From: Flavobacteriales bacterium
Lineage (GTDB): Bacteria; Bacteroidota; Bacteroidia; Flavobacteriales_D; Sanyastnellaceae
Assembly (NCBI GenBank): GCA_022428205.1
Contig: JAKMCW010000068.1
Location: 473 to 64,472, forward strand
Reading direction: 5' to 3'
DNA: 64,000 nucleotides
Positions within the stretch are counted from its first letter, which is position 1. Every line of letters starts with the position of its first letter. The translations under genes and the position numbers were made by a program. Positions 32,050 through 56,681 of the stretch are shown in pieces. The notes under the pieces are model-generated. The model did no database searches. It was not told the DNA's origin and saw only the letters and a program-made list of their open reading frames with translations.

Positions 32050-35000
32050 ATGCTGTCATTTCGCAACCTTATAATTCTACTAACGCTTTCCTTGACCAGT
32101 CCGATTTTCGGTCAGGACCTCGAAGCGTTGCTCTCTACTGAGCCCGCTCAGCTCTCTCCTTCTCAGATTGAGACGCTTGCGGCTTTCACTGTGACCATCG
32201 ACACCATAGCTGAGGATGTTGGTGTACTCAGCGACGTCGACTTGACAGGATACAGCACCTACCGTTTGTACATCACAACGAACTCTGAGCAGGACAAAGT
32301 CTCCAGCATCTACGGCGACTTGGACGAGCCCCTCTCGGTTGAAACGACGGGAGACTTCTTTCAATCCTCTCCAATCGGCGGAGTAACAGCAGAAGGCATC
32401 ATCCCATTGGTCTGGGGTACATATCCATCCAATGAGTTTGACAGCTACGTCACGGTGGGCATTGACGAGGCCCCATCAAATGAAGCAGGAGAGTTGGGCA
32501 TCAATCTTTTGCAATCTGGCAACGACTCATGGGTCACCTATTTCGAACCGGAGGACGATTCCTATGGAGGAGACTTTGAGATTTCAGACTTGACCGGTGG
32601 AGGCTGGTTCGTTTTGCCCAGTGCCACCAATGGCATTGCAGGTCCAGAGAAGAGGGTGCTGATCGCCCAATTCACCACCAATGGCGCGCTTTCTGGCGTC
32701 ATTAACGCCCAAATCTTCTTGGAGGGTGACAACATCAATGGTACGGTTTACTTGACCTTGACCCTGCCCGTTGAAGGCTGCGATGACGAGACAGCCTGCA
32801 ACTATGACGAAGAAGCCACAATCAACGATGGTTCATGTCTGTTTGCCGATGCGCCTTGCGAGAGCTGCTTGAACGGCGAGCTCGTGGACAACGATTTAGA
32901 CGATGACGGCGTCTGTGACGACGTAGACGACTGCGTTGGAACGCTCGACGCCTGTAACGTATGTAATGGACCTGGCGAGATCTACGACTGTGGGTGCGCT
33001 GACATCCCCGCTGGCCAATGCGACTGTGACGGAAACCAAGAAGACGCCCTCGGGGTCTGTGGCGGATCCTGCGCGGCCGATGCCGACAACGATGGCATCT
33101 GTGACGACGTAGACGACTGCGTCGGAACGCTCGACGCTTGTAGCGTCTGTAACGGACCTGGCGAGATCTACGACTGCGGGTGCGCCGACATCCCAGCTGG
33201 CGATTGCGACTGTAACGGAAACCAAGAAGACGCCCTCGGGGTCTGTGGTGGATCCTGCGCAGCCGATGCCGACAACGATGGCATCTGCGACGACGTGGAC
33301 AACTGTACTGACCTCAGCGCGTGCAACTTTGACGGCACTGCTGGAGGAAGCGGCGATTGCGTCACCCTTTCATTGGAGACCTACGTTGTCCACACTTCAG
33401 GCAACCTGAATGGACAGACGACTTACCGCTTGTACGCCGTCCTTCCCAATAGCGATGACTTCCTGTCAGCTGTAAAAGGAGAAGGCCCCACGCCATTGAA
33501 CATCACCACCACCACCAGCTTCTACCAAAACGAATTCGGCGGTGCGGACGGAACCAACATCAACGCACAGCTCTTCGGTTTCGACCCAGAATTGCAATAT
33601 GACAGCTGGGTCACGATCGGACATGCGCCAGAAGACGGTCCCGCTCAAATCAACCTCACCACGGCCACCAGCCCTGGTCAAGACTGGATCAACATCTTCG
33701 AAGGCGGAGGAGACATCGTCATGGACGACACCTTTGGCGGCCTCTGGTCCATCCTCAACGATGGAAACACACAAGGCCTCGCGGGAGACGACAATAAGGT
33801 CCTCATCGCACAATTGACCACCGATGGTAACATCGATGCCCAGATTGAAGTCCAGTACTTCCCCAACTATGGGTGCTGCGCCAACGGCGGAGCCGACGGA
33901 ACCCTGGACCTCAGGAGCCATGTTGACCTCTCCACAGCATGCAATGCCAACAACGACTGTGCTTACACAGACGCTTGCGGTGTATGCGGAGGAGATGGAA
34001 CAGACGAAGACAACGACGGCATCTGTGACGACGTGGACGACTGCGTCGGCGAGCTCGACATCTGTGGCGTCTGCAACGGCAGTGGACCACAGCCCGGCTT
34101 CGACTGCAATGGAGACCCCATTGGGGACGGATGTTCACCATTCTGCCTGAGTCTCGATACTCCACTTGAAGACCAAGTGTTTGATTGCCCAGAAGACCTC
34201 GAATCCGTCTCTTGTCAAACCGACCTGACCGCTTCTAACTTCTGCAACGAAGAACCCGTTGGCGTCAGTTGTTCCTTGGCCTCGCGCCGCCTCTCCGAGA
34301 CGGTCTGCAACGCCACAACCGCCTTGGGTGTGGGCCAAGATGGTGCCCTCGTCCTCTTCGGTATCGAAGGCTACGGTGTAGCATCGACTTATTACGAGCC
34401 CACGGCCGCAGGATTGACCCTGACACAGTATCCCAACAGCAACACCGCTGTTTTGGAAGGTGAAGTACAGGGAACCGCTGACCCCACCGAAAAGTGGTCG
34501 GTCTACATTACCTACGAAAACGCCGTGTCCGGAGCCGATTGGAACGGCGGATTTAAATCTGCCAATGAGTGCACCCCAACTTCCGACATCACAGACTCAT
34601 GGACCATCTACACGATGAAGAATGACCAGAGCTTCTTGATGGGAACCGGTGCACTGGACGGCAGCTTGCTGTTCCTCAACCACGCCCCCATGAATGCTTA
34701 CTTCGGCTTCCAGGTGGGCGAGATGGCCAATGACCGGAACTGCGATTATGGTGCCGGCGGTTGGTTTGCCTGGGAAGGCCAGATCAATGGCCAACCTGTA
34801 GCCGGAGCCAATGGTGACGTACTCGTCAACCTGGAGTGCAGCGAAAACACAGTTGCCCCTTGCGATGAGGAAATCATCTTGACATACTCATTGGTGGATA
34901 CGGCTTGTGCCACTTTGACCAATGTCGAGCAAAGCTTCACCTTCCTCGATGACGTCCCCCCCACCTTTGACAATGCGCCCGCCGATGTGACCCTCAGTTG

Positions 35001-38000
35001 CAACGATCCACTGCCGGCCATTCCGACCTTGACGGCAACGGACAACTGCACAGGAAATCCCTCACCAGTGGTCATTTTCAACGGTGAAGCGGAGACGTCA
35101 TACACGGCCGATGGCTGCCGCACCTTGGAGCGGAGCTGGCTGGCTACGGATGCGTGCAACAACACAAGCACCCATACGCAGACCATCACGATTGAAGACC
35201 TCGATGCGCCGGTCATCACCATGACCTGCCCTGCCGACGCCGCCCTGTTTAGCGATGCCGATTGCAACGCCGAGACAGGTATAGATGCGCTCGGAAGCCC
35301 GACCGTTACAGCGACGGACAACTGCACGGCAGACCCCGGAATTGAGCTTACTCATGAAGATGGAGCGACCACCAGCACCTGTGAAGGCCAGCTGACCTTC
35401 ACACGGACATGGACGGCCACCGCCACGGACGATTGCGGCAACACCGCGATTCAGACATGCGCGCAGTCCATTTCTATTCAGGACCTCATCGCACCGACCA
35501 TCGCAGGTGACACCATCGTCACGATGTCATGCGACGCCTATGACGAGGCTACCCTGTATGCCATCTCGGCAACGGACAATTGCAGCACTGCGAGCATCTC
35601 CGTTCTGTCCAACAGCGCCTTTAGTGGAGCCTGTGCAGGAACCGTCTTGCGCACCTATGAAGCCACAGACGACTGCGGCAACAGCTCCACATTTGAACAG
35701 GTCATTAACCTCACGGACGACGTCGCACCTGCCGTTACCATCGCATGCCCAGCAGGCGCTACGCTTGCGGCAGGACCTGATTGCACGGCCGACCTCTCCG
35801 TTGAGACCCTGGGCACTGCAACCGCCACTGCCACAGACAACTGCGATACGGCACCTGAAGTCGAAATCAGCCATACAGATGTCTTGATCGACCTGTGTGC
35901 TGGCAGCCAAAGATTGGAGCGGACCTGGACGGCCACTGCAACCGACCACTGCGACAATGTGTCCACAACCAGCTGTCTTCAGGTAGTCCTCATTGAAGAT
36001 GTCACACCACCAAGTTTGACCTTGGCCTGCCCTGACGACGCTGCGTTGGAAGTGGACGACATGTGCACCGCATCCACACTGCCAGAAGTGACGGGAACCC
36101 CCACCTTCGAAACATCCGACAATTGCGGTGGCAGTGTCGCGGTATCGCTGAGCCATACCGACAGCGACACCATTCCGGGCTGTGGCAACACCTTCTCATT
36201 TACCCGAACCTGGACAGCTGTGGCCACGGACGATTGCGGCAATGCTGCAACGGCCACCTGCGCCCAAAACATCGCTTTGACCGACGTCACAGCTCCTGAT
36301 TTCGGGGACGCGGCGATTTCCGTCAGCGCACCATGTGATCAATTGCTCGATCCAGAGGACCCCACCCTCGTGCCAGTTGAAGCCACGGACAATTGCTCCG
36401 AGGTGACCTACAGCATCGCCGCTACGGAACTTTCAGGCGGCTGCCCAGGCACATGGGAACGCGTCTGGACCGCCACTGATGCCTGCAACAACAGCAGCAG
36501 CTTTACCCAGTACGTGGCGCTCTTCGACACCATCGCTCCAGCGATCACTTGTCCTTTGGATACCGTCCTCTACCTCGACGCCAACTGCGAGGCAGCCCTC
36601 TCTACGGCGCTGCTGGGTATGGCTTCAGCAGATGACAATTGCTCCTCGGCAGATGAAATCGCCATCTCCTTTGCCGATGGCGCCGCCAGCCTCAGCTGCA
36701 CGGGCGATGACGAGAATCCCGAGGGAAGCCGGACCATCGTCCGCACCTTCACCGCGACTGACTTCTGTGACAATGTGACCGCCTGTTCGCAGACGATCAC
36801 CCTCCTGGACACCATCGCCCCACAGGGCAGCGTATCCAATGAAACCGTCGCCTGCGCTGAATTCGACAGCATGGTTGAATACGGAACAGCTTCCGCTACG
36901 GACAACTGCGACAGCGAGGTGGCGTACTCCTGGGTTGAGGATGGCATCATCAGCACCCTGTGCGAGAACAGCTATGAGGTTCAGCGGACATACACCTTCG
37001 TGGACGACTGTGGCAACAGCAGCACGGCCATCCAAGTCTTGACTGTGGTGGACGACACCGCGCCTGTGGTCATTGGAGACATGCACGCCAGCTTGGCATG
37101 CGACGCCTATGGAGATGATCCTGAAGACCCCGCCAACATCCTCATCACAGCCACCGACGATTGCGGAGAGGTGAGCATCACCTTTATGGACTTGCCGTTC
37201 AGTGGTGGTTGCGTCATGCCGTTCTCCACGTTGATGCGCCAGTACAATGTCAGCGATGACTGCGGCAACACCACGGTGTTCCTTCAGTTCATCGATCTGA
37301 TCGACACGGTCGGGCCGGTCATCACCCTCGATGCCCCCGCTCCTGTCCAACTGTTCTCAGACGCCGATTGCATGTTCAATGCCGACACGAGCATCACGGG
37401 CGTGCCCGGCATCACAGCCTTCGACAACTGCAGTCCTGACGTCACATTGACCATGACAATGGAAGACGGACCGCTCGACACGCTTTGTGCTGGGTCCTAC
37501 GTCTTCACCCGCACCTTCACTGTGACTGGAGAAGACTACTGTGACAATGCGACCGTGGCATCCAGCACCCAAGAGATCACCATTACGGACAACACGGCCC
37601 CCGTGCTGACCTGCCCCGCCGACCTGACGGTGGAGTGCGACGGTGCCGGCAACGCCACAGCACTCGCCAACTGGCTGGCTTCCGCTAGTGCTCTGGACAA
37701 TTGCAGCGAGGCGACCATCACCAACGACTTTGTGGGATTGTCCGACGGGTGCGGCGCCACAGGTGCTGCCACAGTGACCTTCACCGCTATGGACGATTGC
37801 GGCAATGCGAGCCAGTGCAGCGCCACCTTCACCATCACGGACAGCACAGCACCTGTCGTTAGCCCTGCGGCCGACTTGACCGTCCAATGCGACGGTGCAG
37901 GCAACACGGCTGACCTCGAAGCTTGGCTGTTGGCCAACGGCGAAGCGACTGCACAAGAGTCCTGCTCTGACGCCACCTGGTCCAACGACTTCTCAGCACT

Positions 38001-41000
38001 GGAAGAAGCCTGTGGCAGCACGGGCGCTGCAACGGTGACTTTTACTGCCACGGATGACTGCGGAAACGCTGCATCCACTTCGGCCACGTTCAGCATCATC
38101 GACACCATTTCACCAGACTTCAACGGCTCTTCCTACACCTTTGAGATTGCCTGTGACCTCTACGACGAGACCACACTATACGGCCTCATGGTGGACGACG
38201 TGTGCGGACTCGATACCGTCTATGTGAGCGACATCGTCTCCGTGAGCGGAGGATGTCCCGCCGGATACCTGCGCACGTACATGGCACTGGACGCCTGCGG
38301 CAACAGCAGCACCTTCCAGCAAGCTGTCAACCTGATCGACACCGTCGCTCCGATGTTCACATCGGTGCCTGCGGACTACGTGGCCCTCTGCCATGAAAAC
38401 CACCCGCTTGACGATGCTTCGGCCACGGACAACTGTGCCGAAACCTTGTCCATCACGGTGACCGCAGACACGACAGCTGGGGACTGCCCTCAGGCTTACA
38501 CCGTGACGCGCACATTCACCGCAGAAGATGGGTGCGAGAACACCACAACGGCCATTCAAGTCATCCAGATAGTGGACACCTTGGCGCCGAGCTTCGCCGA
38601 GGCCCTTCCCGGAGACATCACCGCGGACTGCCACGCAGTGCCCACAGCCGCCACTTTGACGGCAACGGATCTCTGCAGCGATGTGAGCGTAACCTTCGCC
38701 GAGGACACCACACTCGGCGACTGTCCCCAGGCCTATGTGCTGACACGCACTTGGAACGCTGCTGACGCCTGTGGCAATGCCATCTCACACACCCAAGTGG
38801 TCAATGTGCAGGACGTAACCGCGCCCAGTATTGATACACCCGCCATGGACCTCACAGTGGAATGCGACGGACAAGGCAACGTGTTTGACTATCTGAACTG
38901 GCAGTCTTCACAGGCCGGAGCCACAGCGTCAGACTTGTGTGGAACCGTGACCTGGAGTCATACCGTGGACAACACGTCGGACGCCTGTGAAGGCGCTACC
39001 GGCAGCAGCACGGTGACCTTCACCGCCACGGACGAATGCGGCAACAGCGCATCCACGACGGCCACCTTTACCATCGCAGACACACAAGCGCCCATCATCA
39101 CGGCTGAGGGCCTCGTAGAAGTCATGTGCGCCGATTACAGCGCTGAGGCCGCGTATGGCTTCTCCGCAATGGACGCTTGTAGCGACATCAGCTTCACCAT
39201 CGCGGACACCGAGGTGGAAGGCTCATGTGCCGGCTCCTTCGAACGGATTTACACCGTCACCGATGCCTGCGGCAATGAGGCCACAGCGACCCAAATCGTG
39301 CACTTGTATGACAGCATCGCACCGGTATTCACATCGGTACCCGACAATGCCGACCTCCAATGCGGCAGCGACTTTGGCACGGATGCCTTGGGCATGGCGG
39401 CCGCCGAGGACAATTGTGACGGCGACGTCAGCATCACCTACCTCGATGCCATTGCGGACAGCACCGGCGCAGATTGCTACACCATTCAAAGGGTGTGGAC
39501 CGCGACGGACGCTTGCGGCAATGCAAAGAGCGTGACGCAGACGATCACCATCTCAGACGATGAAGCCCCCGCGCTGTCGGTCAGCTTCCCTGCCGATCTC
39601 CAACTCGAAGCCGATGCCACTTGTAGTGCGGCAACCGGAACGGATGAAACCGGTGAGCCTAGCGCAAGTGCAACGGACAACTGCGACCTGGACGTGCTCG
39701 TCTCCATTGCGCACAGCGACAGCATTGCAGACGGATGTGAAGGCGCCTATACCATCTTCCGTACTTGGACGGTCAGCGCTGCGGACAACTGTGGAAACAG
39801 TGCCTCTGAATCTGCGGTGCAAACCATCGCCGTTGTGGATGTCACTGCACCAACCCTGGCGGTCACGGGCCCTGTGGATCAGGTCTTGGATCAGACAGCC
39901 GGATGCGACCTCGACACCAGTGTTGACGCATTGGGAACGGTTGGTTTCGAAGCCAGCGACGCTTGTGACCCCAATCCGGAGGTTACCGTAACCCACACAG
40001 ATGGTCCTTTGGTGTACAGCTGCATCTCCGATGACAGCATCGCCGAGGGTGACTACAGCTTCACACGGACCTTCACGGTGACCGCGACGGATGCTTGCGG
40101 CAACGCAGAAACGCTGAACATAGAACAAACCATCTCTGTCCTCGACCAGTTACCCCCCCAGTTCACAGAGACTTGTGGCTTGGATAACGGCGCATCGGTC
40201 AGCGTATGCTGCGACGACGCGGAAGGTTCTGTGATCATTCCAGACTCATGTGCTGTGCAGTTCCAGGACAATTGTGACTCCGAAGTCGACCTGACCTACA
40301 CCGAGTCCTATGTCGGGGCATACGCACCTACAGCTGACGTGATTTCCTTCTGCTCATCCAGCCTGCCTGCCCCATTTGAGGACGGCGAGACATGCAATGG
40401 CATGGACCCCCACAACTTGAGGCTGTTCAACCTGCCCGGAGGCGAGGCCTTGTACGCGGCTGTCACGCCGGGAACAGTGGAGCAAAGGGCCGATGGCACC
40501 TGGATGCTTTCACAGAGCGTGACCGCTTTGGACGGCTCTGGAAATGGCTGGGACATCGAAGCCACCTTTGATGCGGCACTGGATTGGAACTCATGGGACA
40601 ATCAGGACTTCCCCACCGGCTACAAGCGGGACTGCAGCGCGCTCATTGACGGGCACGAGGAATGGGACTACCGCATCATGCAAAGCGGCACCCTGACAGG
40701 AACTGGCGGCTATACGGGCTCCACCCTTTCGCTCACCCACGCGCCTGCCAACCAATACTATGCCTTCCAGATTGGCATGGCCGCCAACAACATGAACAAC
40801 GCCTATGGGTACAGCGGATGGTTCGCCTACAGCGGAACATTTGACGGGCAAGCCGTGATCGGTTCAGGAGACCTGTTCGGCGACCTTGATTGCTGCCTCC
40901 CCTGGTCCATCGAGCGGAACTACCTCCTCCTCGACGACTGCGGCAATGCGTCTACCTTCGGTTACACCATCGCGGTCAACGGAACAGACTGTTCCACCTC

Positions 41001-41352
41001 CGGCGACGCTGAAGTATCAGGTCAAGGAGACACAGACCATACGCCCGGCATCATTGGCGGCGCGGGAGACGTGGTGCTCGGCAAGAGCCCCATCCGCGTG
41101 ACCAATCTGCAGCCCAACCCCACCAATGACTGGAGCCAACTCGGCTTCGAGGTGTCGGGCAACATGCGGGTACAAATCAGCATGTTCTCCATGGACGGGC
41201 TGCTCATCGCCGATCTCTATGACGGAGTTGCAGCACCCGGAGTCAACCACTCTTTGGACATCCCCGCGGATGATCTGCAGAGTGGCATGTACCAGATTAG
41301 GCTTTCCAATGCCCAGTACATGGTGGTCAAGAAGCTACTGGTGACCGATTGA
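32050..41352 (+). CDS. giant T9SS-secreted adhesin-like protein (3100 aa): 2x domain X, TSP3/Cys-rich repeats, 2x domain Y, ~21 HYR-like repeats, type-A CTD
   Basis: Signal MLSFRNLIILLTLSLTSPIFGQ. Repeated ...TATDNC...RTWTATDDCGN...C.Q.I.I.D modules. C-terminal ...PIRVTNLQPNPTNDWSQLGF...SGMYQIRLSNAQYMVVKKLLVTD. Confidence 0.9.
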   Translation: MLSFRNLIILLTLSLTSPIFGQDLEALLSTEPAQLSPSQIETLAAFTVTIDTIAEDVGVLSDVDLTGYSTYRLYITTNSEQDKVSSIYGDLDEPLSVETTGDFFQSSPIGGVTAEGIIPLVWGTYPSNEFDSYVTVGIDEAPSNEAGELGINLLQSGNDSWVTYFEPEDDSYGGDFEISDLTGGGWFVLPSATNGIAGPEKRVLIAQFTTNGALSGVINAQIFLEGDNINGTVYLTLTLPVEGCDDETACNYDEEATINDGSCLFADAPCESCLNGELVDNDLDDDGVCDDVDDCVGTLDACNVCNGPGEIYDCGCADIPAGQCDCDGNQEDALGVCGGSCAADADNDGICDDVDDCVGTLDACSVCNGPGEIYDCGCADIPAGDCDCNGNQEDALGVCGGSCAADADNDGICDDVDNCTDLSACNFDGTAGGSGDCVTLSLETYVVHTSGNLNGQTTYRLYAVLPNSDDFLSAVKGEGPTPLNITTTTSFYQNEFGGADGTNINAQLFGFDPELQYDSWVTIGHAPEDGPAQINLTTATSPGQDWINIFEGGGDIVMDDTFGGLWSILNDGNTQGLAGDDNKVLIAQLTTDGNIDAQIEVQYFPNYGCCANGGADGTLDLRSHVDLSTACNANNDCAYTDACGVCGGDGTDEDNDGICDDVDDCVGELDICGVCNGSGPQPGFDCNGDPIGDGCSPFCLSLDTPLEDQVFDCPEDLESVSCQTDLTASNFCNEEPVGVSCSLASRRLSETVCNATTALGVGQDGALVLFGIEGYGVASTYYEPTAAGLTLTQYPNSNTAVLEGEVQGTADPTEKWSVYITYENAVSGADWNGGFKSANECTPTSDITDSWTIYTMKNDQSFLMGTGALDGSLLFLNHAPMNAYFGFQVGEMANDRNCDYGAGGWFAWEGQINGQPVAGANGDVLVNLECSENTVAPCDEEIILTYSLVDTACATLTNVEQSFTFLDDVPPTFDNAPADVTLSCNDPLPAIPTLTATDNCTGNPSPVVIFNGEAETSYTADGCRTLERSWLATDACNNTSTHTQTITIEDLDAPVITMTCPADAALFSDADCNAETGIDALGSPTVTATDNCTADPGIELTHEDGATTSTCEGQLTFTRTWTATATDDCGNTAIQTCAQSISIQDLIAPTIAGDTIVTMSCDAYDEATLYAISATDNCSTASISVLSNSAFSGACAGTVLRTYEATDDCGNSSTFEQVINLTDDVAPAVTIACPAGATLAAGPDCTADLSVETLGTATATATDNCDTAPEVEISHTDVLIDLCAGSQRLERTWTATATDHCDNVSTTSCLQVVLIEDVTPPSLTLACPDDAALEVDDMCTASTLPEVTGTPTFETSDNCGGSVAVSLSHTDSDTIPGCGNTFSFTRTWTAVATDDCGNAATATCAQNIALTDVTAPDFGDAAISVSAPCDQLLDPEDPTLVPVEATDNCSEVTYSIAATELSGGCPGTWERVWTATDACNNSSSFTQYVALFDTIAPAITCPLDTVLYLDANCEAALSTALLGMASADDNCSSADEIAISFADGAASLSCTGDDENPEGSRTIVRTFTATDFCDNVTACSQTITLLDTIAPQGSVSNETVACAEFDSMVEYGTASATDNCDSEVAYSWVEDGIISTLCENSYEVQRTYTFVDDCGNSSTAIQVLTVVDDTAPVVIGDMHASLACDAYGDDPEDPANILITATDDCGEVSITFMDLPFSGGCVMPFSTLMRQYNVSDDCGNTTVFLQFIDLIDTVGPVITLDAPAPVQLFSDADCMFNADTSITGVPGITAFDNCSPDVTLTMTMEDGPLDTLCAGSYVFTRTFTVTGEDYCDNATVASSTQEITITDNTAPVLTCPADLTVECDGAGNATALANWLASASALDNCSEATITNDFVGLSDGCGATGAATVTFTAMDDCGNASQCSATFTITDSTAPVVSPAADLTVQCDGAGNTADLEAWLLANGEATAQESCSDATWSNDFSALEEACGSTGAATVTFTATDDCGNAASTSATFSIIDTISPDFNGSSYTFEIACDLYDETTLYGLMVDDVCGLDTVYVSDIVSVSGGCPAGYLRTYMALDACGNSSTFQQAVNLIDTVAPMFTSVPADYVALCHENHPLDDASATDNCAETLSITVTADTTAGDCPQAYTVTRTFTAEDGCENTTTAIQVIQIVDTLAPSFAEALPGDITADCHAVPTAATLTATDLCSDVSVTFAEDTTLGDCPQAYVLTRTWNAADACGNAISHTQVVNVQDVTAPSIDTPAMDLTVECDGQGNVFDYLNWQSSQAGATASDLCGTVTWSHTVDNTSDACEGATGSSTVTFTATDECGNSASTTATFTIADTQAPIITAEGLVEVMCADYSAEAAYGFSAMDACSDISFTIADTEVEGSCAGSFERIYTVTDACGNEATATQIVHLYDSIAPVFTSVPDNADLQCGSDFGTDALGMAAAEDNCDGDVSITYLDAIADSTGADCYTIQRVWTATDACGNAKSVTQTITISDDEAPALSVSFPADLQLEADATCSAATGTDETGEPSASATDNCDLDVLVSIAHSDSIADGCEGAYTIFRTWTVSAADNCGNSASESAVQTIAVVDVTAPTLAVTGPVDQVLDQTAGCDLDTSVDALGTVGFEASDACDPNPEVTVTHTDGPLVYSCISDDSIAEGDYSFTRTFTVTATDACGNAETLNIEQTISVLDQLPPQFTETCGLDNGASVSVCCDDAEGSVIIPDSCAVQFQDNCDSEVDLTYTESYVGAYAPTADVISFCSSSLPAPFEDGETCNGMDPHNLRLFNLPGGEALYAAVTPGTVEQRADGTWMLSQSVTALDGSGNGWDIEATFDAALDWNSWDNQDFPTGYKRDCSALIDGHEEWDYRIMQSGTLTGTGGYTGSTLSLTHAPANQYYAFQIGMAANNMNNAYGYSGWFAYSGTFDGQAVIGSGDLFGDLDCCLPWSIERNYLLLDDCGNASTFGYTIAVNGTDCSTSGDAEVSGQGDTDHTPGIIGGAGDVVLGKSPIRVTNLQPNPTNDWSQLGFEVSGNMRVQISMFSMDGLLIADLYDGVAAPGVNHSLDIPADDLQSGMYQIRLSNAQYMVVKKLLVTD
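32185..32769 (+). other. domain X copy 1 (unassigned ~170-190-aa module)
   Basis: STYRLY...KVSSIYG...FDSYVTVG...GGGWFVLPSATNGIAGPEKRVLIAQFTTNGALSGVINAQIF. Confidence 0.7.
32899..33310 (+). repeat. near-identical 186-bp (62-aa) in-frame tandem repeat, 2 full copies plus a partial third
   Basis: Units start at 32899, 33085 and 33271. Each encodes D[DN]DG[VI]CDDVDDCVGTLDAC[NS]VCNGPGEIYDCGCADIPAG[QD]CDC[DN]GNQEDALGVCGGSCAADA. The DNA copies differ at only a handful of positions by eye. Confidence 0.9.
33367..33873 (+). other. domain X copy 2
   Basis: TTYRLYAVLPNSDDFLSAVKG...TTTTSFYQ...YDSWVTIG...GGLWSILNDGNTQGLAGDDNKVLIAQLTTDGNIDAQIEVQYF. Confidence 0.7.
34297..34839 (+). other. domain Y copy 1 (unassigned ~180-aa module)
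   Basis: ...LFLNHAPMNAYFGFQVGEMANDRNCDYGAGGWFAWEGQINGQPVAGANGDVLVNLEC. Confidence 0.6.
34948..40146 (+). repeat. array of ~21 HYR-like Cys-containing repeats (75-100 aa each), coding
   Basis: Boundaries recur as D-x-[TIV]-[AP]-P (DDVPPTF, DLDAPVI, DLIAPTI, DDVAPAV, DVTPPSL ... DQLPPQF). Each unit contains ...TATDNC... and ...R[TV]WTATDxCGN...C.Q.I. Confidence 0.8.
40375..40896 (+). other. domain Y copy 2
   Basis: FEDGETCNGMDPHNLRLFNLPGGE...LSLTHAPANQYYAFQIGMAANNMNNAYGYSGWFAYSGTFDGQAVIGSGDLFGDLDCC. Confidence 0.6.
41086..41349 (+). other. T9SS type-A C-terminal sorting domain
   Basis: SPIRVTNLQPNPTNDWSQLGFEVSGNMRVQISMFSMDGLLIADLYDG...LQSGMYQIRLSNAQYMVVKKLLVTD. Confidence 0.8.
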
Positions 41353-41506: not shown

Positions 41507-44104
41507 ATGGACCACCACAATTGCATGCCTATGAGACGCTTCCTTCTCACCCTCCTGACCTTCAGCATCCTCATCCCTACAGGTTTCGGCCAGAATTACA
41601 GCCTTGAAGAAGAAGTGGTTAGCGCCGATATCGGCTTGCTCGTTGGTGCCCTCGGGATCGTAGACCTGACCGGATACAGCTGTACCCGGTACTATGTCAA
41701 CATGGAGAACGCCGACGACTTCATGTCTTCTGTTTCAGGTGATGCGACCAATCCCACCTACGTCAATACCACCACGAACTTCTATCACGCGACGCTTGGA
41801 GCAGCAACACCAAACGGGATCAACAGCCTGCTGTTTCCCGTTTACCCCGATCTCGTCTATGACAGCTGGGTCACCATCGGTCTCGAAGGCGTGCCCAACG
41901 CCGCAGCAGGCGAGGCCGCCGTGGCCACTGTACAATCCACAGACAACCCCTGGTCGACCAACTTCGAGCCTGGAGGCGGATTGCCAGGCAGCAACATCGC
42001 GATTGATGATGCCATCGGCGGTGCTTGGTATGCCCTCAACGGCGATGCCAATGGTGTTGCAGGTGACGACCTCAAAGTATTGGTCGGTCAATTCACGACC
42101 GAAGGAGACTTGAGCGGTCAGCTCTACTGTCAAATCTTCATCAATGGTGACGGATCTGACGAGTACCGAGAGACCTTCTACATCGGAGCCCCCCCTTCCG
42201 TTCCAGGCTGCATCGACGAGACAGCTTGCAATTTCGACGCAACAGCCAACGAGGATGACGGGTCCTGCACCTTCGCTGATCCAGGACTCAATTGTGACGG
42301 CTCATGCATCACCGACACCGATGGCGACGGCATCTGCGACGGCGATGAAGTGCCAGGCTGCACCGACGATACGGCCTGCAACTACGACGACACCGCGACC
42401 GACGACGACAGCTCATGTACCTATGCCGACCCCGGACTCAACTGCGACGGATCGTGCATCGAGGACACCGACGGTGACGGCATCTGCGACGGCGATGAAG
42501 TACCCGGTTGCACCGACGATACAGCGCTGAATTATGACGAAACTGCCACGGACGACGATGGCTCCTGTGAATATGGATGTGCGCCGGAATGGGGTGATCC
42601 CGTGACCTTGCCTTCCATCGCAACTGTGTTGGCCCAAGTGACCATTGCTGGCGAAAATGCCGCGTCAAATGACATCGTGGGCGCGTTCATCAACGGTGAA
42701 CTCCGTGGAGAGGGCAACATCATCGAGTACGAAGGCGGCACCTACATCAACATGACCGTCTATCTGGCGGGAGGCGAAGAGACCATCACATTCGCCCTCT
42801 TCAATGCCGAGGAATGCAGCGTCTGCAACATCGACGGTGAACTGACCTCCATGGGCTTCGGAGAATACGGCAGCTTTGATGACCCCCTCATGTTGGACGC
42901 CAACTGCACGGCCAGCACATTGGAGGTAGAACTCATGGCGGGCTGGAACTACGTATCCACCAACGTCACCCCTGACAACTACGCCATATCTGCGCTCTTT
43001 GAAGACAACCTCGGAGACAACCTCCTCAAGGTGTTGGGCGATGATGTCTTTGCACTTGGACAGAGCTACACACCCGGTATCCCAAGCGTATTCAACTCCC
43101 TGCAAATGCACATGGACGCTGCAGGTTACGTGATCAAAGTTGAAGCCGACGGCACCTGGTCATCAACCGGCGATCCTGTGGATGTTGCGACCACACCACT
43201 CGATTTGAACGAGGGCTGGAACATCATTGGTTACCTGCCACAGGCGGCCATGAACGTAGACATGGCCTTGTCTTCCATCGAAGGAACCATTGGAACGGTC
43301 ATCGACGGACAGAGTGGGACGGTATGGAACCCTGCCAACCCCAATGAATTCAACAGCCTCACTGAATTGGAGCCCGGCCGTTCCTACTGGGTGCGCATGT
43401 TGGAAGCCAGCACCCTGGTGTACCCTTCAGGTGATGCACCAGAGGACGGCAGTGGCATGACGCTTGCACACACCCGCACCGGCGACAACGCTGCTGAAAT
43501 GGCCACCGGCTGGGAGGTCGTGAGGCTCCCCGGAGCCGCTGCCCTCGCGGCAGAAGTTCGGTTGGATGAACTGCCCGTTGAAGGCGAAGCATACATCGGA
43601 GCTTTTGTGGGAGAAACCTGTGTTGCAGCCCGCACTGTTCTGACCCTCAGCGCCAGCACCGCTGCGCAAATGGCGATCATGCTCGAAGGGCCGAGTGAAG
43701 TCTCCTTCAAGTTGTGGGCCGATGGCATCGTCTACTCAGCGCAGGAAACAATGCTATTGGAAGCGGGTGATGAAGGTGGCCAAGGAGGAGACATCCTCCC
43801 CATCATTCGTTTCGCATCCGAAGCCAACAGTGTGGCCATGCAAGACTGGGTGCAGTCTTTCTCCATCGCGCCCGTTCCTGCCAACGGAGAAGCCTGGATC
43901 AACCTCGAACTCGCGCAGGGAAGCCAGGTGAGCATCAGCATCCTCGATGCGCGTGGCGCCATTGTCGACGTGCTCCATGATGGATACCTCAGTGCAGGCG
44001 CGCGGCGTATCGGACTCAACGCAGAACAATGGGCCGCAGGAACCTACTTCGTAAAAGGGGTGAGTGCGAAGGGCACATTCAGTACGCCGTTCATGGTGCG
44101 TTGA
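41507..44104 (+). CDS. T9SS-secreted protein: domain X, Cys-rich/TSP3-like tandem repeats, beta-sandwich-like modules, type-A CTD
   Basis: Signal ...MRRFLLTLLTFSILIPTGFGQ (alternative ATGs at 41525 and 41531). C-terminal FSIAPVPANGEAWINLELAQGSQVSISILDARGAIV...GTYFVKGVSAKGTFSTPFMVR. Confidence 0.8.
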   Translation: MDHHNCMPMRRFLLTLLTFSILIPTGFGQNYSLEEEVVSADIGLLVGALGIVDLTGYSCTRYYVNMENADDFMSSVSGDATNPTYVNTTTNFYHATLGAATPNGINSLLFPVYPDLVYDSWVTIGLEGVPNAAAGEAAVATVQSTDNPWSTNFEPGGGLPGSNIAIDDAIGGAWYALNGDANGVAGDDLKVLVGQFTTEGDLSGQLYCQIFINGDGSDEYRETFYIGAPPSVPGCIDETACNFDATANEDDGSCTFADPGLNCDGSCITDTDGDGICDGDEVPGCTDDTACNYDDTATDDDSSCTYADPGLNCDGSCIEDTDGDGICDGDEVPGCTDDTALNYDETATDDDGSCEYGCAPEWGDPVTLPSIATVLAQVTIAGENAASNDIVGAFINGELRGEGNIIEYEGGTYINMTVYLAGGEETITFALFNAEECSVCNIDGELTSMGFGEYGSFDDPLMLDANCTASTLEVELMAGWNYVSTNVTPDNYAISALFEDNLGDNLLKVLGDDVFALGQSYTPGIPSVFNSLQMHMDAAGYVIKVEADGTWSSTGDPVDVATTPLDLNEGWNIIGYLPQAAMNVDMALSSIEGTIGTVIDGQSGTVWNPANPNEFNSLTELEPGRSYWVRMLEASTLVYPSGDAPEDGSGMTLAHTRTGDNAAEMATGWEVVRLPGAAALAAEVRLDELPVEGEAYIGAFVGETCVAARTVLTLSASTAAQMAIMLEGPSEVSFKLWADGIVYSAQETMLLEAGDEGGQGGDILPIIRFASEANSVAMQDWVQSFSIAPVPANGEAWINLELAQGSQVSISILDARGAIVDVLHDGYLSAGARRIGLNAEQWAAGTYFVKGVSAKGTFSTPFMVR
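41597..42187 (+). other. domain X copy 3
   Basis: CTRYYVNMENADDFMSSVSG...TTTNFYH...YDSWVTIG...GGAWYALNGDANGVAGDDLKVLVGQFTTEGDLSGQLYCQIF. Confidence 0.7.
42275..42574 (+). repeat. 150-bp (50-aa) in-frame tandem repeat, 2 copies
   Basis: ADPGLNCDGSCI[TE]DTDGDGICDGDEVPGCTDDTA[CL]NYD[DE]TATDDD[SG]SC[TE]Y, with units starting at 42275 and 42425. Confidence 0.9.
43859..44101 (+). other. T9SS type-A C-terminal sorting domain
   Basis: FSIAPVPANGEAWINLELAQGSQVSISILDARGAIVDVLHDGYLSAGARRIGLNAEQWAAGTYFVKGVSAKGTFSTPFMVR. Confidence 0.8.
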
Positions 44105-49104: not shown

Positions 49105-49998
49105 CTACAGTTTCAAGAGTTGTGAAGCCAATGGAGCACCATTCTCGCCAAAGAGAACGATGAGGCCTCGACCATGGCTGACAAACTGTCCGTTGTCCAC
49201 CCGCCCTGATTCAAGTGACCGGCCTGCGGCATCGTACCGGATCCAAGAGTGGACTTCAACATCCACCAAATGAACATGCCGCCCTTCCTCCAAGGGAATC
49301 ACCCCCCAGCTTGGGCCTTGCGGCGTCTCATCAGGCGCAATCGAAGACAACCCTCCCGCATCGAATTCTGGAACCACAATGCTGTAGACATCGTCCATGA
49401 AGTCATCCGAAGAAACCCCCTCTGAAAACACTTGCAGATTGAGGTATCCCGAAATCACACCGTCCGTTGTGAACTGACCGACCAGCACCTTTAAGTCTTC
49501 ACCAGCCGTTCCGTTTGAACTGCCAAGGGTTACAAACCAAGCGCCGTCTACATCCATCACAAGGTTTTCACCGGCCTCGAAAGCATTGACCCAAAACTCA
49601 GTCTGGGGTGGAAACAAACCCACCGGGATTTCACCAGCAACCCCATTTGGCGCCGACTCAATACCTATGGTCACCCATGAGTCCCAGCGCAAGCCAGGAA
49701 GCAAGTCAAACAACAAGGGGTTGTTGTTGTTGGGCGTCGCCCAGCCATCAGGGTGCTGATAAAATGAGGTCGTAGTGAAGACAGCACCCACCATGTCGTC
49801 CCACCCCGAAATGGAGGTCAAGTAATCCGTGGGGTTGACCAATTTGGCATACAGCCTGGCCGTGGTCATGCCCGGGATACTGTCCACTGCCACCACTTCC
49901 CATTCCAAAGAATAAGGAGCGGCAGAAGACTGAGATTGGACCTTATTCAAGGCCATCATACAACACATCAAGGGCAGAATGCGGAACAGCGTTTTCAT
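49105..49998 (-). CDS. small secreted protein: domain X followed by a degenerate T9SS-CTD-like tail
   Basis: Signal MKTLFRILPLMCCMMALNKVQSQ. Domain X motifs TTARLY...TTTSFYQ...WDSWVTIG...KVLVGQFTTDGVISGYLNLQVF. Confidence 0.7.
   Translation of the reverse strand: MKTLFRILPLMCCMMALNKVQSQSSAAPYSLEWEVVAVDSIPGMTTARLYAKLVNPTDYLTSISGWDDMVGAVFTTTSFYQHPDGWATPNNNNPLLFDLLPGLRWDSWVTIGIESAPNGVAGEIPVGLFPPQTEFWVNAFEAGENLVMDVDGAWFVTLGSSNGTAGEDLKVLVGQFTTDGVISGYLNLQVFSEGVSSDDFMDDVYSIVVPEFDAGGLSSIAPDETPQGPSWGVIPLEEGRHVHLVDVEVHSWIRYDAAGRSLESGRVDNGQFVSHGRGLIVLFGENGAPLASQLLKL
49363..49914 (-). other. domain X copy 4
   Basis: TTARLYAKLVNPTDYLTSISG...TTTSFYQ...WDSWVTIG...DGAWFVTLGSSNGTAGEDLKVLVGQFTTDGVISGYLNLQVF. 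Confidence 0.7.
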
Positions 49999-50053
49999 GG
50001 AGTGGCAAACCAAAGGCACAACTTCAAAACCAAGGAGCGAATGCCCTTAAATG

Positions 50054-50655: not shown

Positions 50656-51378
50656 TCAGAGGCCTAAGCCCACGGTCAGGCCAAACCTCCAACCAGGACC
50701 ACTGTCACTGTTTAGAAATGTGGACCAGCGAGAAGGATTGAAGAGCCTGTCCTCCAAGCTGTCATCTACCAACTCTCTTTCCTCCGCCGACAACTCTCCT
50801 TCATGGGTCCAGCTGCGGGAATAACTCCGAAACATCGGGCCTGTATACACCTCGATGCTGATGCCATTGTCAGAATACCATTGGTAACCAACCAACACGC
50901 CTCCTCCCCAATGGAATTGACTGAAAGTGCCGTCGAGTTCTCCCTGGTATTGGGATTGAGACAAGCCGCTCAGGTCATCGACATCTTCATCGAACTCGAG
51001 GTTCCATTGCTCCAACCGCCCCATGATGCTCACGAAGACCCCTTCAGGCATGCCGCCGTACACCCATGCGTAACGGCGCAACTCAGGGGTGATCCGCCAC
51101 CCCGTATGGTTGACCTCCACGTCCGTCCACGAGTCCATGCCCGCGAAATTGTTGTAGTAGTAACGGCCATAGTCCTCTGAAGCTCCGATCCCCGCGAGGG
51201 AAAACTGCACCGAAGTCGATTCATTCAAGACGTACTCATATCCCAATTCGTAACGCGCGAAATACCAATCGCTCAGGTTCAATTTCACGAGGTTGCGGGT
51301 TTCAATGTCCTCGCTGACCTGCGCTGTGCCGGAAGTCAGCGCCAAAACGCCGACCAAAAACAAAATAACCGCCCTCAC
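50656..51378 (-). CDS. putative outer-membrane beta-barrel protein
   Basis: A GTG at 51378 overlaps the TGA of the upstream gene and gives (M)RAVILFLVGVLALTSGTAQ, a signal peptide. Alternating-strand, aromatic-rich sequence. No family recognised. Confidence 0.45.
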   Translation of the reverse strand: MRAVILFLVGVLALTSGTAQVSEDIETRNLVKLNLSDWYFARYELGYEYVLNESTSVQFSLAGIGASEDYGRYYYNNFAGMDSWTDVEVNHTGWRITPELRRYAWVYGGMPEGVFVSIMGRLEQWNLEFDEDVDDLSGLSQSQYQGELDGTFSQFHWGGGVLVGYQWYSDNGISIEVYTGPMFRSYSRSWTHEGELSAEERELVDDSLEDRLFNPSRWSTFLNSDSGPGWRFGLTVGLGL

Positions 51379-51863
51379 TGACAATCCTGCATTGTGTAGG
51401 TGACCCCAGCAATGAGCCAACGGCCTTGATCGCTCTTGATCAGCTGAAAGGCGTCGTGCCCACAATGGCTCAACTCCTCTCCAATTCTGAATTCATATGC
51501 CGTCCATACGCTGGCCATGGCATCTGAATACTGAACAACCGGGTTGTCTATGCTTTCAATCAATGGTGGCCCCTTGTAGGCCAATTCATCCAGCCATTCG
51601 GCTGAAGGCGTCAACTTCATTGTCACTGAGTCTCCCCTCAAGTCAATGCTGGTCAGCATGGCATCCGGGTGCAGCACACGCTGCAGTCGAAACTTCTCAC
51701 GCGCTTGGAGGGCCTGCAAGAAGTCCTGCACCGAAGTCAGGACAAGCTGGGTTTCCTCATTGTGGGCAGCATCTTGCTGTCCTCCCTCTCCACACCCCGC
51801 AAAACCCAGGGTAGACAACGCCACACAGGCCATCAAAATCTTTCGCAACATCATTGCATCCAT
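51375..51863 (-). CDS. NTF2-like (SnoaL/DUF4440-like) lipoprotein
   Basis: MLRKILMACVALSTLGFAGC lipobox (alternative ATG at 51851). C-terminal ...WTAYEFRIGEELSHCGHDAFQLIKSDQGRWLIAG resembles NTF2-fold proteins. Confidence 0.5.
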   Translation of the reverse strand: MDAMMLRKILMACVALSTLGFAGCGEGGQQDAAHNEETQLVLTSVQDFLQALQAREKFRLQRVLHPDAMLTSIDLRGDSVTMKLTPSAEWLDELAYKGPPLIESIDNPVVQYSDAMASVWTAYEFRIGEELSHCGHDAFQLIKSDQGRWLIAGVTYTMQDCQ

Positions 51864-52657
51864 GTTTTGCGTGAAAATACAACCCCTGATTCGGTCACAG
51901 TATGGGCGATAACCAGCCCTTTGTGTGCACAGTGTATACGGTGTTGACCCGTCCCAAGGCTCCCTTCATAAAGCATCCGTCCATCCATACTGAGGAGGGT
52001 GGTCGAGTGGGCTTCAAAACAATCCACAGTCAACTGACCCGTGGCCGTTTGCATCAAAGTGAAGCGCTCATCAGCGAGGGCTTCCACTCCCGTCGTGCCT
52101 TCCGTGAATACAAACTGCGCGGCCTCGGGACTGTCACCGGAAGACACGCCGTTTCCATTGGCCGTCACTGAGGCGACGTACACACTGACCGGACCACTGC
52201 CCGCCTCAGGCGCCACCCATTCGATCTCAAAAGTGCCCGAAGCGCACAGGTCATTTTGCTCGAAAATGTGGCGTCCTTCCACCACATCCAACCAAATACA
52301 ATCGTTGGGGTCCTGGTCATTGAAACTGCCCGCATTTGACCCATCGGCAAGAACTGCTGTTCCGTGCACACCATAACCCGATGGAGCACCCGTCGATGTC
52401 ACATTGACCACAAGCGTATGGGTTCCCCCAGGAATGTATTCACCCGACAATGCGATATCGCCTTCCACCACCATAAAGGCATCCAATTGGGGCGCAAAAC
52501 TTCCACCTGCATGACATTGCCCACAAGTATTGTCGCTCCCAGGAGCGCCAGTGCGGTCTTTGTTTTGCTGGTGTGCCACACCATTAGAATTAGAGAGAAA
52601 GGTGATGGCAAACACCCCCAGCATCAAGGCAGAAAGAAGACGGAATTTGTATGGCAT
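51851..52657 (-). CDS. secreted protein with TGAPG-x5-CGQCH motif and degenerate T9SS-CTD-like tail
   Basis: Start at ATG 52657: MPYKFRLLSALMLGVFAITFLSNS signal; DRTGAPGSDNTCGQCHAGG (CxxCH at 52511-52525). Beta-rich C-terminal ~70 aa. Confidence 0.6.
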   Translation of the reverse strand: MPYKFRLLSALMLGVFAITFLSNSNGVAHQQNKDRTGAPGSDNTCGQCHAGGSFAPQLDAFMVVEGDIALSGEYIPGGTHTLVVNVTSTGAPSGYGVHGTAVLADGSNAGSFNDQDPNDCIWLDVVEGRHIFEQNDLCASGTFEIEWVAPEAGSGPVSVYVASVTANGNGVSSGDSPEAAQFVFTEGTTGVEALADERFTLMQTATGQLTVDCFEAHSTTLLSMDGRMLYEGSLGTGQHRIHCAHKGLVIAHTVTESGVVFSRKTWMQ

Positions 52658-52828
52658 GTTATTGAACTCGTGTTGCAAACTAAACCATCCATTTTGGACC
52701 ACGGTTGCAGGAAAGTGACACACATCATAAAAGTCATTGACAAACGTCATTGGCATGGATAGATGCTTCCCCCATTTTCAGGGGGCTTCTCCGATTCACA
52801 CCACCACTTACACCGAATTGCCATCACC

Positions 52829-56300: not shown

Positions 56301-56681
56301 TGTCAGGTTGGTGTTGAAGGTCAAGAAACCCTTGCGGCTCACTTTGATTTCAAAGAAGTCCGTATCAAAGAAGCTGAATCCAAAGGGCAGGCTAATGTCA
56401 CCTGTGAAACCGTTGGTCGCAGTGGACTGGACCGTTCCACTTCCGACGGCCAATGGTGGCGCATAGGCGATGGAGTCCACGTCGTATCCCGTGGTCTCCG
56501 CAGCACGCTCAAAGTCAGGGGCTACCCAAACACAAGAATCGAGGCACCCGGCGGTGAGACCCTCCGGTCCAGTAAGGAATCCACAATCCGTTTGGGCAGT
56601 CGAGACCAATGAACTTAAGACAAGAACGACCAACAGGCCGAGGCCATGGCCTGGAGCTGCCAAGGACAAGAAATTGCGCAT
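53358..56681 (-). CDS. large adhesin-like protein with gliding-motility-associated (T9SS type-B) C-terminal domain
   Basis: Signal peptide; seven ~70-aa repeats (GGTW.ADCGGC...G.FDP...Y..SY). C-terminal NIFTPNGDGKNDRLVFKYIELYP...VYNRNGAVVYEAEGYDNDWSG...GTHYFVLQL. Confidence 0.85.
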   Translation of the reverse strand: MRNFLSLAAPGHGLGLLVVLVLSSLVSTAQTDCGFLTGPEGLTAGCLDSCVWVAPDFERAAETTGYDVDSIAYAPPLAVGSGTVQSTATNGFTGDISLPFGFSFFDTDFFEIKVSRKGFLTFNTNLTGTYNYPNQSLGSGSLPSNSIMAPYAYISNSGGEVRTATLGEFPCRQFVISWENLPQTGCGSNELVTQVVLHETSNKVEMHIGQFESCLGITACVGIQGGSGEGAFGPAEYDTGEFTISNESFEYSPNGATQTQLVYLLGDEIVGQGDSISLCIEGTTELVIGANFPEILPPPPVAGSCDAIPEEACDTVMGYDFNLSANQTGSFDFPFEGELLGFAVTNNWSPAGGSWPGDMSMSICDPSGSCGVIEGFSFDLPGVLIGDWPFNWNTTFGGFYEACFAVPGNLLEGDGDWTLTVQNAWGGSGANVNFEGSVTLFYLCNLEPEEPDTSQFMATDTIMVEFTFESQNAQFAILDMDGNPLDVLCSGDEAVTLAPDAPGGTWAADCVGCLDQGGTIDPSQTPPGILEVSYTLLGDCGEVTEVEEIQVGLTPNINTGSVGGLCPFADPVQLVATPAGGNWEADCGGCVSPDGLFDPSTGAGAYTASYTFGTLCTSTGTVAVNVGEEVAASLEDVNYCESVGSIQLDGDGLAGTWTADCGGCIQNSGAFTPPGPGAYAVSFLPGAGCGVESEATVTVDESLPIGSSNVPDVVCVDATALSLEADVPGGTWTASGAGLNGASFDPGAAPLGVNVLNYQVENGACTNSASFSLEVLPILSVTLQEEDPFCVNSSGGALNSDVDLSAEAVWSDVPNLVWTSDCGGCLSSNGVFDPGDAGEGTHTVSIAYNDPVGCSTGASIEILVAPAVDASIDAIPDLCESSGTEVFGAADGGGTWTASCGNCITPAGSFDPGIGAGNYTITYTITDVCSDVDAVQVTVVPQRDAAILVDVPNDELCIGVEEWQLGSIWADGVWSASSASGNECIDPVTGLLDLEAAGVGTVTVNHVLEGLCGDTDSHVLEILSCAVELVNIFTPNGDGKNDRLVFKYIELYPDNFLTVYNRNGAVVYEAEGYDNDWSGEGAADGTHYFVLQLPEGEEHAGQLMILR
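53361..53615 (-). other. gliding-motility-associated / T9SS type-B C-terminal domain
   Basis: VNIFTPNGDGKNDRLVFKYIELYPDNFLTVYNRNGAVVYEAEGYDNDWSGEGAADGTHYFVLQLPEGEEHAGQLMILR. Confidence 0.8.

Follow-up and report, generated by a model that had tools for sequence, protein, structure and literature searches.

What is a domain of ~170-195 residues, present five times in a single 64,000-nt stretch of Flavobacteriales DNA and matched by no described family, likely to do for the cell that carries it? The stretch (called here the window, at its full length) covers positions 473-64,472 of the forward strand of contig JAKMCW010000068.1, assembly GCA_022428205.1, from a Flavobacteriales bacterium of the GTDB lineage Bacteroidota; Bacteroidia; Flavobacteriales_D; Sanyastnellaceae. 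A first-pass annotation of the window had pointed out the five related copies, which we call domain X. According to our analysis X is a new domain family within a known kind of protein, the fibrillar adhesin of the world of type IX secretion (T9SS), and not a new system. From its position and context we consider it somewhat more probable than not, at roughly 55%, that X is a ligand-binding (adhesive) head module of surface adhesins anchored by their C-termini.

The copies lie where the annotation had placed them, and the boundaries given by a hidden Markov model (HMM) built from all five differ from its coordinates by a few codons at most (aa, amino acids; i-E, independent E-value of the HMM match):

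32185..32769, plus strand: X1, aa ~46-240, the domain with which the mature 3,100-aa protein begins; i-E 7e-78
33367..33873, plus strand: X2, internal, aa ~440-608 of the 3,100-aa protein; i-E 6e-74
41597..42187, plus strand: X3, right behind the signal-peptide-like segment of an 865-aa protein; i-E 3e-87
49363..49914, minus strand: X4, in a small 297-aa protein; i-E 6e-83
62202..62759, minus strand: X5, internal, with Cys-containing repeats on both sides; i-E 2e-88

Compared pairwise by BLASTP, the five copies share 34-46% identity over 161-195 residues (E 1e-24 to 4e-52, 84-155 bits), whereas the best score among 200 composition-preserving, residue-shuffled versions was 26.9 bits. The likeness is therefore one of homology, and the worry voiced in the annotation, that the shared motifs might be merely compositional, is excluded as an explanation. 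In a MAFFT alignment the copies are 34-40% identical to X1, and invariant columns, 29 in all, occur along its full length. When all stop-to-stop segments of the whole window were searched in six frames, the HMM returned exactly these five matches (i-E 6e-74 to 2e-88) and no sixth copy, the next best segment having an i-E of 41. The ordered motif set that had drawn attention to the domain stands as a series of consensus strings, which are approximate: taken literally, each pattern fits between three and five of the five copies. X has ~180 residues without cysteines, and many of its conserved positions are Gly, Pro or aromatic, as is typical of a fold core. Some 22 residues are kept in at least 90% of X sequences, and about ten of the residues kept to this degree are polar, namely T21, R23, D33, D81, S82, T85, N139, Q152, T154 and T155 in the numbering of X5.

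Searches against described families (Pfam-A 2025, NCBIfam 20.0) bore out the first impression that X belongs to none of them. No Pfam-A family matched four of the copies, and the fifth, X5, gave one 16-bit match to SET7_N, rejected as spurious at a cut-off of 27 and in a single copy; NCBIfam matched none of the five. Among the 96 family members scanned with Pfam and the 35 scanned with NCBIfam, both at E<=1, no family recurred on X itself, and what was found were partner domains. A sequence-profile search of the PDB with the five-copy alignment gave no match at E<=10; the best match of a second profile search, PDX1.3, a TIM-barrel enzyme, had an E of 1.2 and was set aside as chance and unrelated. 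All names given by the sources to members of the family are 'hypothetical protein', and nothing relevant was found in the literature on T9SS or fibrillar-adhesin domain discoveries and on the 'CNYD' motif.

The fold of X was modelled twice with AlphaFold2, from different copies and different alignments. In the model of the whole 297-aa protein (96 sequences) the predicted local distance difference score (pLDDT) is ~90-98 across X4 and 86.6 for the entire chain, and the model of X5 alone (35 non-redundant domain sequences) reaches a pLDDT of 96.3 and a predicted template modelling score (pTM) of 0.91; the order of secondary-structure elements is the same in both. The predicted core is a beta-sandwich of about seven long strands, four N-terminal and three C-terminal, which enclose an insert of ~95 residues made of loops, short helices and short strands. 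Most conserved are motifs of the insert (YDSWVTIG, W...FE, GGxW, NG), and TTYR and VLxAQxTTxG lie on core strands. With the domain-only model of X5, Foldseek found no match at E<=1e-3 in either PDB or BFVD, and its best matches were generic sandwiches with a template modelling score (TM) of at most 0.35 and a root-mean-square deviation (rmsd) of 7-10 A. The same search with the whole 297-aa model returned C-terminal domains of glycoside hydrolase family 85 (GH85) Endo-A, transglutaminase barrels and RbmA at TM ~0.2 and rmsd >10 A, which we discarded as uninformative. Thus the checks which the annotation had proposed, by hmmscan and by AlphaFold with Foldseek, yielded no significant family or structure match for the copies. 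Judged by these searches and models, X is an autonomous extracellular domain, so far undescribed, with a confidently predicted fold.

The family is large. An exhaustive HMMER search of 1.84 billion representative proteins (clusters at 50% identity) found 3,111 clusters at E<=1e-3, 1,701 at 1e-10 and 527 at 1e-30, with proteins of up to 3,529 aa and up to five copies of X in each. A word-indexed search found 254 clusters, mostly orthologues of the small protein, ~290-300 aa long. We also used loci (L numbers) on species-representative (GTDB) contigs; at least 426 stretches with X were confirmed there, and the best 80 were analysed. Nearly all of these 80 come from metagenome-assembled genomes (MAGs) labelled Flavobacteriales, Crocinitomicaceae, Cryomorphaceae or Bacteroidota, the closest being a Black Sea Flavobacteriales MAG whose X1 is 93% identical. 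Four contigs bear other labels, Nitrosopumilus, Terrimicrobiaceae, Comamonadaceae and a euryarchaeote MAG (L002, L060, L061 and L079), and L002 is 72% identical to X1. Since their sequence and architecture match Flavobacteriales loci, they are probably mis-binned. The suggestion of a lineage-specific surface module thus holds for the restricted taxonomic range, with the order Flavobacteriales, and not one genome, as the lineage.

Position of X within its proteins follows a pattern. In the analysed loci, which were confirmed with the N-terminal copy X1, an open reading frame (ORF) contains one to five copies, hundreds of residues apart and not in tandem arrays. The first copy begins no more than 70 residues (median 41) from a signal-peptide-like Met in 68 of the 73 ORFs with an intact 5' end, and a signal-peptide heuristic was positive in 73 of 80 related ORFs. 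Partner domains, read from 50 larger members, are Por_Secre_tail, TSP3_bac, Binary_toxB-type Ca-binding, EF-hand, SprB repeat, LTD, fasciclin, TIG, HYR_4C and plastocyanin-like domains; no enzyme domain stood beside X in any of the 50. The annotation's question about distribution and partners of X is in this way answered by Flavobacteriales MAGs and by modules of the adhesin type.

A Cys-rich 'ACN(Y/F)D' motif follows within 45 residues behind X in 104 of 199 instances, often alternating with TSP3-like acidic motifs; motifs of this class dominate the consensus of one of our alignments (A4), and the same order of X and then ACNYD is seen in both multi-domain proteins of the window that begin with X. 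As an observation in its own right, the longer form 'GC(T/I)DxxACN(Y/F)DxxAxxDDGSC' occurs 654 times in 146 thousand residues of X-bearing ORFs; the 'DxDGDGICDxDE' TSP3-like part is recognised by Pfam, and the ACNYD unit is seemingly unannotated.

Four genes of the window carry the five copies, and the parts of their products that matter for the argument are these (CTD, C-terminal domain):

32050..41352, plus strand: gene of the 3,100-aa surface protein, with a signal-peptide-like N-terminus, X1, a Cys-rich/TSP3-like linker, X2, a long repeat stalk and a C-terminal T9SS type-A-like sorting domain
32776..33366, plus strand: Cys-rich linker between X1 and X2, with an 'ACNYD...DDGSC' motif, 'DNDGICDDVDDC' TSP3-like acidic motifs and 'CNVCNGPG' repeats, as read in the translation
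41113..41343, plus strand: type-A-like CTD of the 3,100-aa protein; Por_Secre_tail at aa 3022-3098, 22.4 bits, E 1.6e-4
41507..44104, plus strand: gene of the 865-aa surface protein, with a signal-peptide-like N-terminus, X3, CNYD/TSP3-like Cys-rich repeats, ~430 aa without an assigned domain and a T9SS type-A-like CTD
42188..42577, plus strand: Cys-rich repeats after X3, three 'GC(T/I)D..ACN(Y/F)D..A..DDGSC' motifs alternating with 'DTDGDGICDGDE' TSP3-like motifs
49105..49998, minus strand: gene of the small X protein, 297 aa, with a signal-peptide-like N-terminus, X4 and a conserved beta-sandwich tail of ~80 aa
49108..49305, minus strand: tail of the small protein, strands 232-295 of the model, a predicted 7-strand sandwich of ~80 aa
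60846..64000, minus strand: 3' part of the gene of a large surface protein, with Cys-containing repeats of ~90 aa, X5, more repeats, ~300 aa without an assigned domain and a T9SS type-A CTD
60855..61088, minus strand: type-A CTD of this truncated large protein; in the 1,050-aa fragment PF18962 spans aa 972-1048 (E 8e-7)

Basic-then-hydrophobic N-termini can be read for the proteins of X1, X3 and X4, in which the first residue of X stands at about aa 46, 31 and 28, so that X follows right after the signal-peptide-like segment in three proteins and is internal for X2 and X5, as had been noticed at the first reading. For the small protein the most likely start, judged by translation, is the ATG at 49998 (297 aa) over the GTG at 50019 (304 aa); it gives a normal signal-peptide-like N-terminus and a length equal to that of many orthologues, of which there are about 58 clusters of 287-328 aa. 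The ORF with X5 (60846..63920, scanned as a fragment of 1,050 aa) has a frame open to 63998 and past the right edge of the window, and is therefore the C-terminal part of a larger protein. Pfam recognises HYR_4C in five stretches of the 3,100-aa protein (1.4e-41) and TSP3_bac in the 865-aa protein (25.2 bits). The repeats of ~90-100 aa that flank X5, with 'DNCD' and 'DDCGNS' cysteine motifs, resemble by eye the HYR_4C of the 3,100-aa protein; they gave no Pfam match even at E<=0.1.

All four proteins had been called T9SS-secreted, and sequence supports this for three at most, the large ones, where a CTD was detected, one of them above the Pfam gathering score. In the truncated large protein the CTD scores 29.7 bits with Pfam, above the gathering score of 27, and 22.5 bits with TIGR04183 (cut-off 23). 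In the 3,100-aa protein Por_Secre_tail stays below 27 and TIGR04183 gives 19.1 bits (E 9e-4, cut-off 23), and in the 865-aa protein the scores are 23.8 bits (gathering score 27) and 22.6 bits (cut-off 23). Both sub-threshold domains sit at the extreme C-terminus and can be aligned with confirmed CTDs, that of the 3,100-aa protein being 51% identical to the CTD of the protein beginning at 60846.

The small protein is the part of the claim that did not hold. Its tail is conserved in the orthologues, with invariant W, H, W, G, G and F and a basic C-terminal end, and it matches no Pfam or NCBIfam family; hhalign gives a probability of 0.1% against type-A CTDs. Foldseek finds weak matches to the RgpB CTD (5ag8) and HBP35 (E ~1e-2). 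The possibility that the tail had diverged from a T9SS CTD was examined and rejected, for hhalign gave a negative result and none of the protein's orthologues showed CHU_C or Por_Secre_tail. The tail has no likeness to type-A or type-B CTDs, and may represent a sorting or anchoring domain not yet described. A type-B sorting domain (CHU_C / Bac_Flav_CTERM) is found elsewhere in the window, in an otherwise unannotated 1,107-aa protein (53358..56681, minus strand), which by these domain matches shows that the source genome uses both CTD types. Genes of the T9SS machinery (PorK/L/M/N, SprA, PorU/V) were not seen in the window, where no search was aimed at them; apart from the X proteins it holds only further proteins of the cargo type, such as this one.

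It would be logical to suggest from this arrangement that X works as a head. We infer its surface anchoring, its binding function and the kind of its ligand. The host proteins would be exported by the Sec pathway, and at least the three large ones would then pass through the T9SS and be held at the cell surface by their C-terminal end. X, with which the mature protein almost always begins, would thus be carried well away from the cell on a stalk built of repeat domains and of Ca2+-type acidic or Cys-rich linkers, and would serve there as a ligand-binding (adhesive) head; further copies inside the protein would add valency or more specificities, and the small protein of X plus tail would present a single X near the cell surface. 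A glycan or a surface component of particles or phytoplankton is our leading guess for the ligand. We favour the head function because X is borne by long repeat stalks at the end away from the C-terminal anchor and is not in tandem, because it is twice the size of a typical stalk domain and better conserved than the stalk, because it also exists as a conserved single-domain protein, because its partners are adhesin-type modules only, and because about ten polar residues are kept, more than a plain spacer would need.

Similar architecture is known from the heads of fibrillar adhesins (staphylococcal UafA, ClfA and SdrG; streptococcal AspA and SspB), which like X are beta-sandwiches opposite a surface anchor, on a repeat stalk with Ca2+-type motifs. 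They are among the top Foldseek matches of X, but at E >=0.02 and TM <=0.31 and with no significant likeness in sequence. Those heads belong to proteins anchored by LPXTG, whereas the hosts of X are Gram-negative Bacteroidota with a T9SS C-terminal signal, and X differs by its loop-rich insert of ~95 residues. The repeat stalk and the surface anchor by which fibrillar adhesins are recognised are both found here: five HYR_4C stretches and a CTD in the 3,100-aa protein, and SprB, TIG, HYR_4C and TSP3 in the family. From the T9SS side, HYR_4C, SprB repeat, LTD, Cleaved_Adhesin and choice-of-anchor domains occur in the same proteins and in the same type of architecture, and X, like the 'choice-of-anchor' domains, is a module of secreted proteins defined by sequence only. 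It matches none of the models of those T9SS-cargo modules, and solved representatives such as the adhesin domains of gingipains are absent from its Foldseek matches.

Several points weigh against X being a head. Since some copies are internal, the tip is not the only place of X. In PDB and BFVD, the two collections that the Foldseek search covered, there was no structural neighbour whose ligand is known, and the functional call is therefore based on position and context. Instead of a binding site, the conserved polar residues could make up a network inside the fold which holds the insert against the sandwich. Scores of the T9SS CTD fall under the curated cut-offs in two of the three large proteins, and the small protein has none. 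Moreover, the positional statistics come from loci confirmed with the N-terminal copy X1, a sample possibly biased to tip copies, and the signal-peptide calls were made with a crude hydrophobic-stretch heuristic and reading by eye.

Some of these points would suit a structural module without a specific ligand (a rigid spacer, a stalk cap or a folding nucleus), conserved for the contacts of its loop insert. Many stalk domains are beta-sandwiches as well, the sole structural likenesses of X are generic sandwiches with TM <=0.35, many of its conserved residues are the Gly, Pro and aromatic ones of a fold core, and internal copies do lie between stalk repeats. Stalk domains are, however, normally short, similar and tandem, whereas X is twice that size and not tandem, and copies inside one protein are merely 34-46% identical. 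X also comes first in 68 of 73 ORFs, and in many genomes it exists in the stand-alone protein of X plus tail. Furthermore, X1 is better kept than the stalk, X1 with its linker being 65-67% identical to the L003 and L004 orthologues and the stalk 42-60%. We therefore regard a purely structural role as unlikely.

A module for protein-protein contacts, cohesin-like in the sense that X would bind a partner motif or another X in a surface layer or in cell aggregation, seems to us rather improbable. Type-II cohesins of cellulosomes (1qzn, 3f2l, 5g5d) resemble X in being extracellular beta-sandwiches of ~165-175 aa with inserted helices, several to a scaffold, and they recur among its best Foldseek matches at TM 0.32-0.35, but none of these is significant (E 0.07-0.3, with an rmsd of 7-8 A), no match of any kind reaches E<=1e-3, and the adhesin sandwiches UafA, ClfA, SdrG, AspA and SspB score as well as the cohesins. 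The Pfam Cohesin family (PF00963) matches none of 96 members at E<=1. Many X proteins are encoded in one genome, often in adjacent genes (for example in L026, L027 and L049), and the ACNYD motif, paired with X in about half of the instances, is in principle a possible partner element; no dockerin-like partner has been identified for X, and type-II cohesins differ from the X hosts in phylum and in secretion route.

It is very improbable that X is a catalytic domain displayed on the surface, such as a jelly-roll polysaccharide lyase or hydrolase. Flavobacteriales do degrade polysaccharides, an amylase or pullulanase gene is nearby, and positions with Arg, Gln, Asp, Thr and Tyr on beta-strands (TTYR, AQxTT, FYQ) vary little or not at all; but no carbohydrate-active or other enzyme family matches X in Pfam or NCBIfam, no jelly-roll lyase or hydrolase is among the Foldseek matches in the PDB, where many have been solved, up to five copies per protein in the company of adhesin-only partners are atypical for enzymes, and the amylase gene is a conserved neighbour of the housekeeping type, not fused to X. 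A polysaccharide-lyase-like reading of the conserved R/Q/Y motifs was accordingly dropped as having neither enzyme family nor structural support. Gingipains have N-terminal prodomains, and an N-terminal X might likewise be cut off once the protein is exported, having served as prodomain or as secretion chaperone; this is hardly to be expected, since X, for all its place directly behind the signal peptide in most proteins, is also internal and present up to five times per protein, makes up with the tail essentially the whole mature small protein, and is accompanied by no protease or other domain needing a prodomain.

How did five copies come together within 32 kb? Their closeness, from which the annotation had suggested a lineage-specific module, could be read as a local expansion, and this reading did not survive the comparison with other genomes. 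In the loci compared, window copies are 46-93% identical to copies elsewhere and 34-46% to each other. Orthologous N-terminal copies 48-93% identical to X1 are found in other genomes; X2 has its best relative in an N-terminal copy of L072 (51%); X3 has copies 76-79% identical in L017, L021, L025 and L056; X4 has relatives at 98% in the cluster search and at ~51% among the genome loci; and the best for X5 is 47%. Each copy is closer to foreign copies than to its neighbours in the window, and therefore the five are, by the measure of identity, old paralogues, each with its own orthologues, and not products of a recent local amplification. Recent duplication or an island origin was rejected on the same ground, the region being syntenic chromosome with housekeeping genes: the X genes are interspersed with genes for 2-oxoacid dehydrogenase E1, dihydrolipoyl dehydrogenase, exonuclease VII and an amylase-family enzyme, and around the small X gene synteny is kept in a relative with an orthologue only ~62% identical.

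A block with X2 (aa ~385-636 of the 3,100-aa protein, window ~33200..33960) is absent from the orthologues compared (L001, L003 and L004), both from orthologues 88-91% identical on either side of it and from more distant ones. X is therefore gained or lost as a module, and the comparison points to a recent modular insertion or deletion of this block.

Some neighbouring genes deserve a record. In a conserved cluster, all on one strand, the small X gene is accompanied by a 134-aa ORF and by genes for a DUF3575 beta-barrel (50656..51465), a lumazine-binding-like lipoprotein (51375..51863) and a choice-of-anchor V protein. The choice-of-anchor V protein (51851..52756, minus strand) is a secreted protein of 301 aa with 62.7 bits to the NCBIfam model, a CxxCH motif (NTCGQCH) and no Pfam match. 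These neighbours, together with small membrane proteins, gave no functional lead. Beside a ferritin-like gene lies the gene of the 1,107-aa protein with the type-B CTD, its position conserved in L081-L086. A 723-aa protein (56721..58892, minus strand) is matched weakly by DUF6851 and by VCPO_2nd, a helical bundle of the vanadium-chloroperoxidase type, and may be a secreted haloperoxidase or an acid-phosphatase-like enzyme.

Seas and fresh waters abound in Flavobacteriales of the Crocinitomicaceae/Cryomorphaceae type, most of them uncultured, and the giant surface proteins of these bacteria are almost wholly unannotated. Unannotated beta-sandwich modules are to be expected in adhesins of Bacteroidota, and X will be no surprise to specialists. 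Going further than the head function itself, we may speculate, with more doubt than belief, that X is the founder of a new structural family of ligand-binding heads specific to aquatic Flavobacteriales, and that X with the ACNYD motif would be the recognition end of giant T9SS adhesins which attach to phytoplankton, particles or prey. On this view each of the old subfamilies (X1-type, X3-type and small-protein type) would stand for a specificity of its own, and these would be shuffled from protein to protein, as apparently happened with X2. X merits a domain-family entry, which would give an architecture to thousands of 'hypothetical proteins', and it offers an easily expressed handle for asking what the uncultured aquatic Flavobacteriales attach to.

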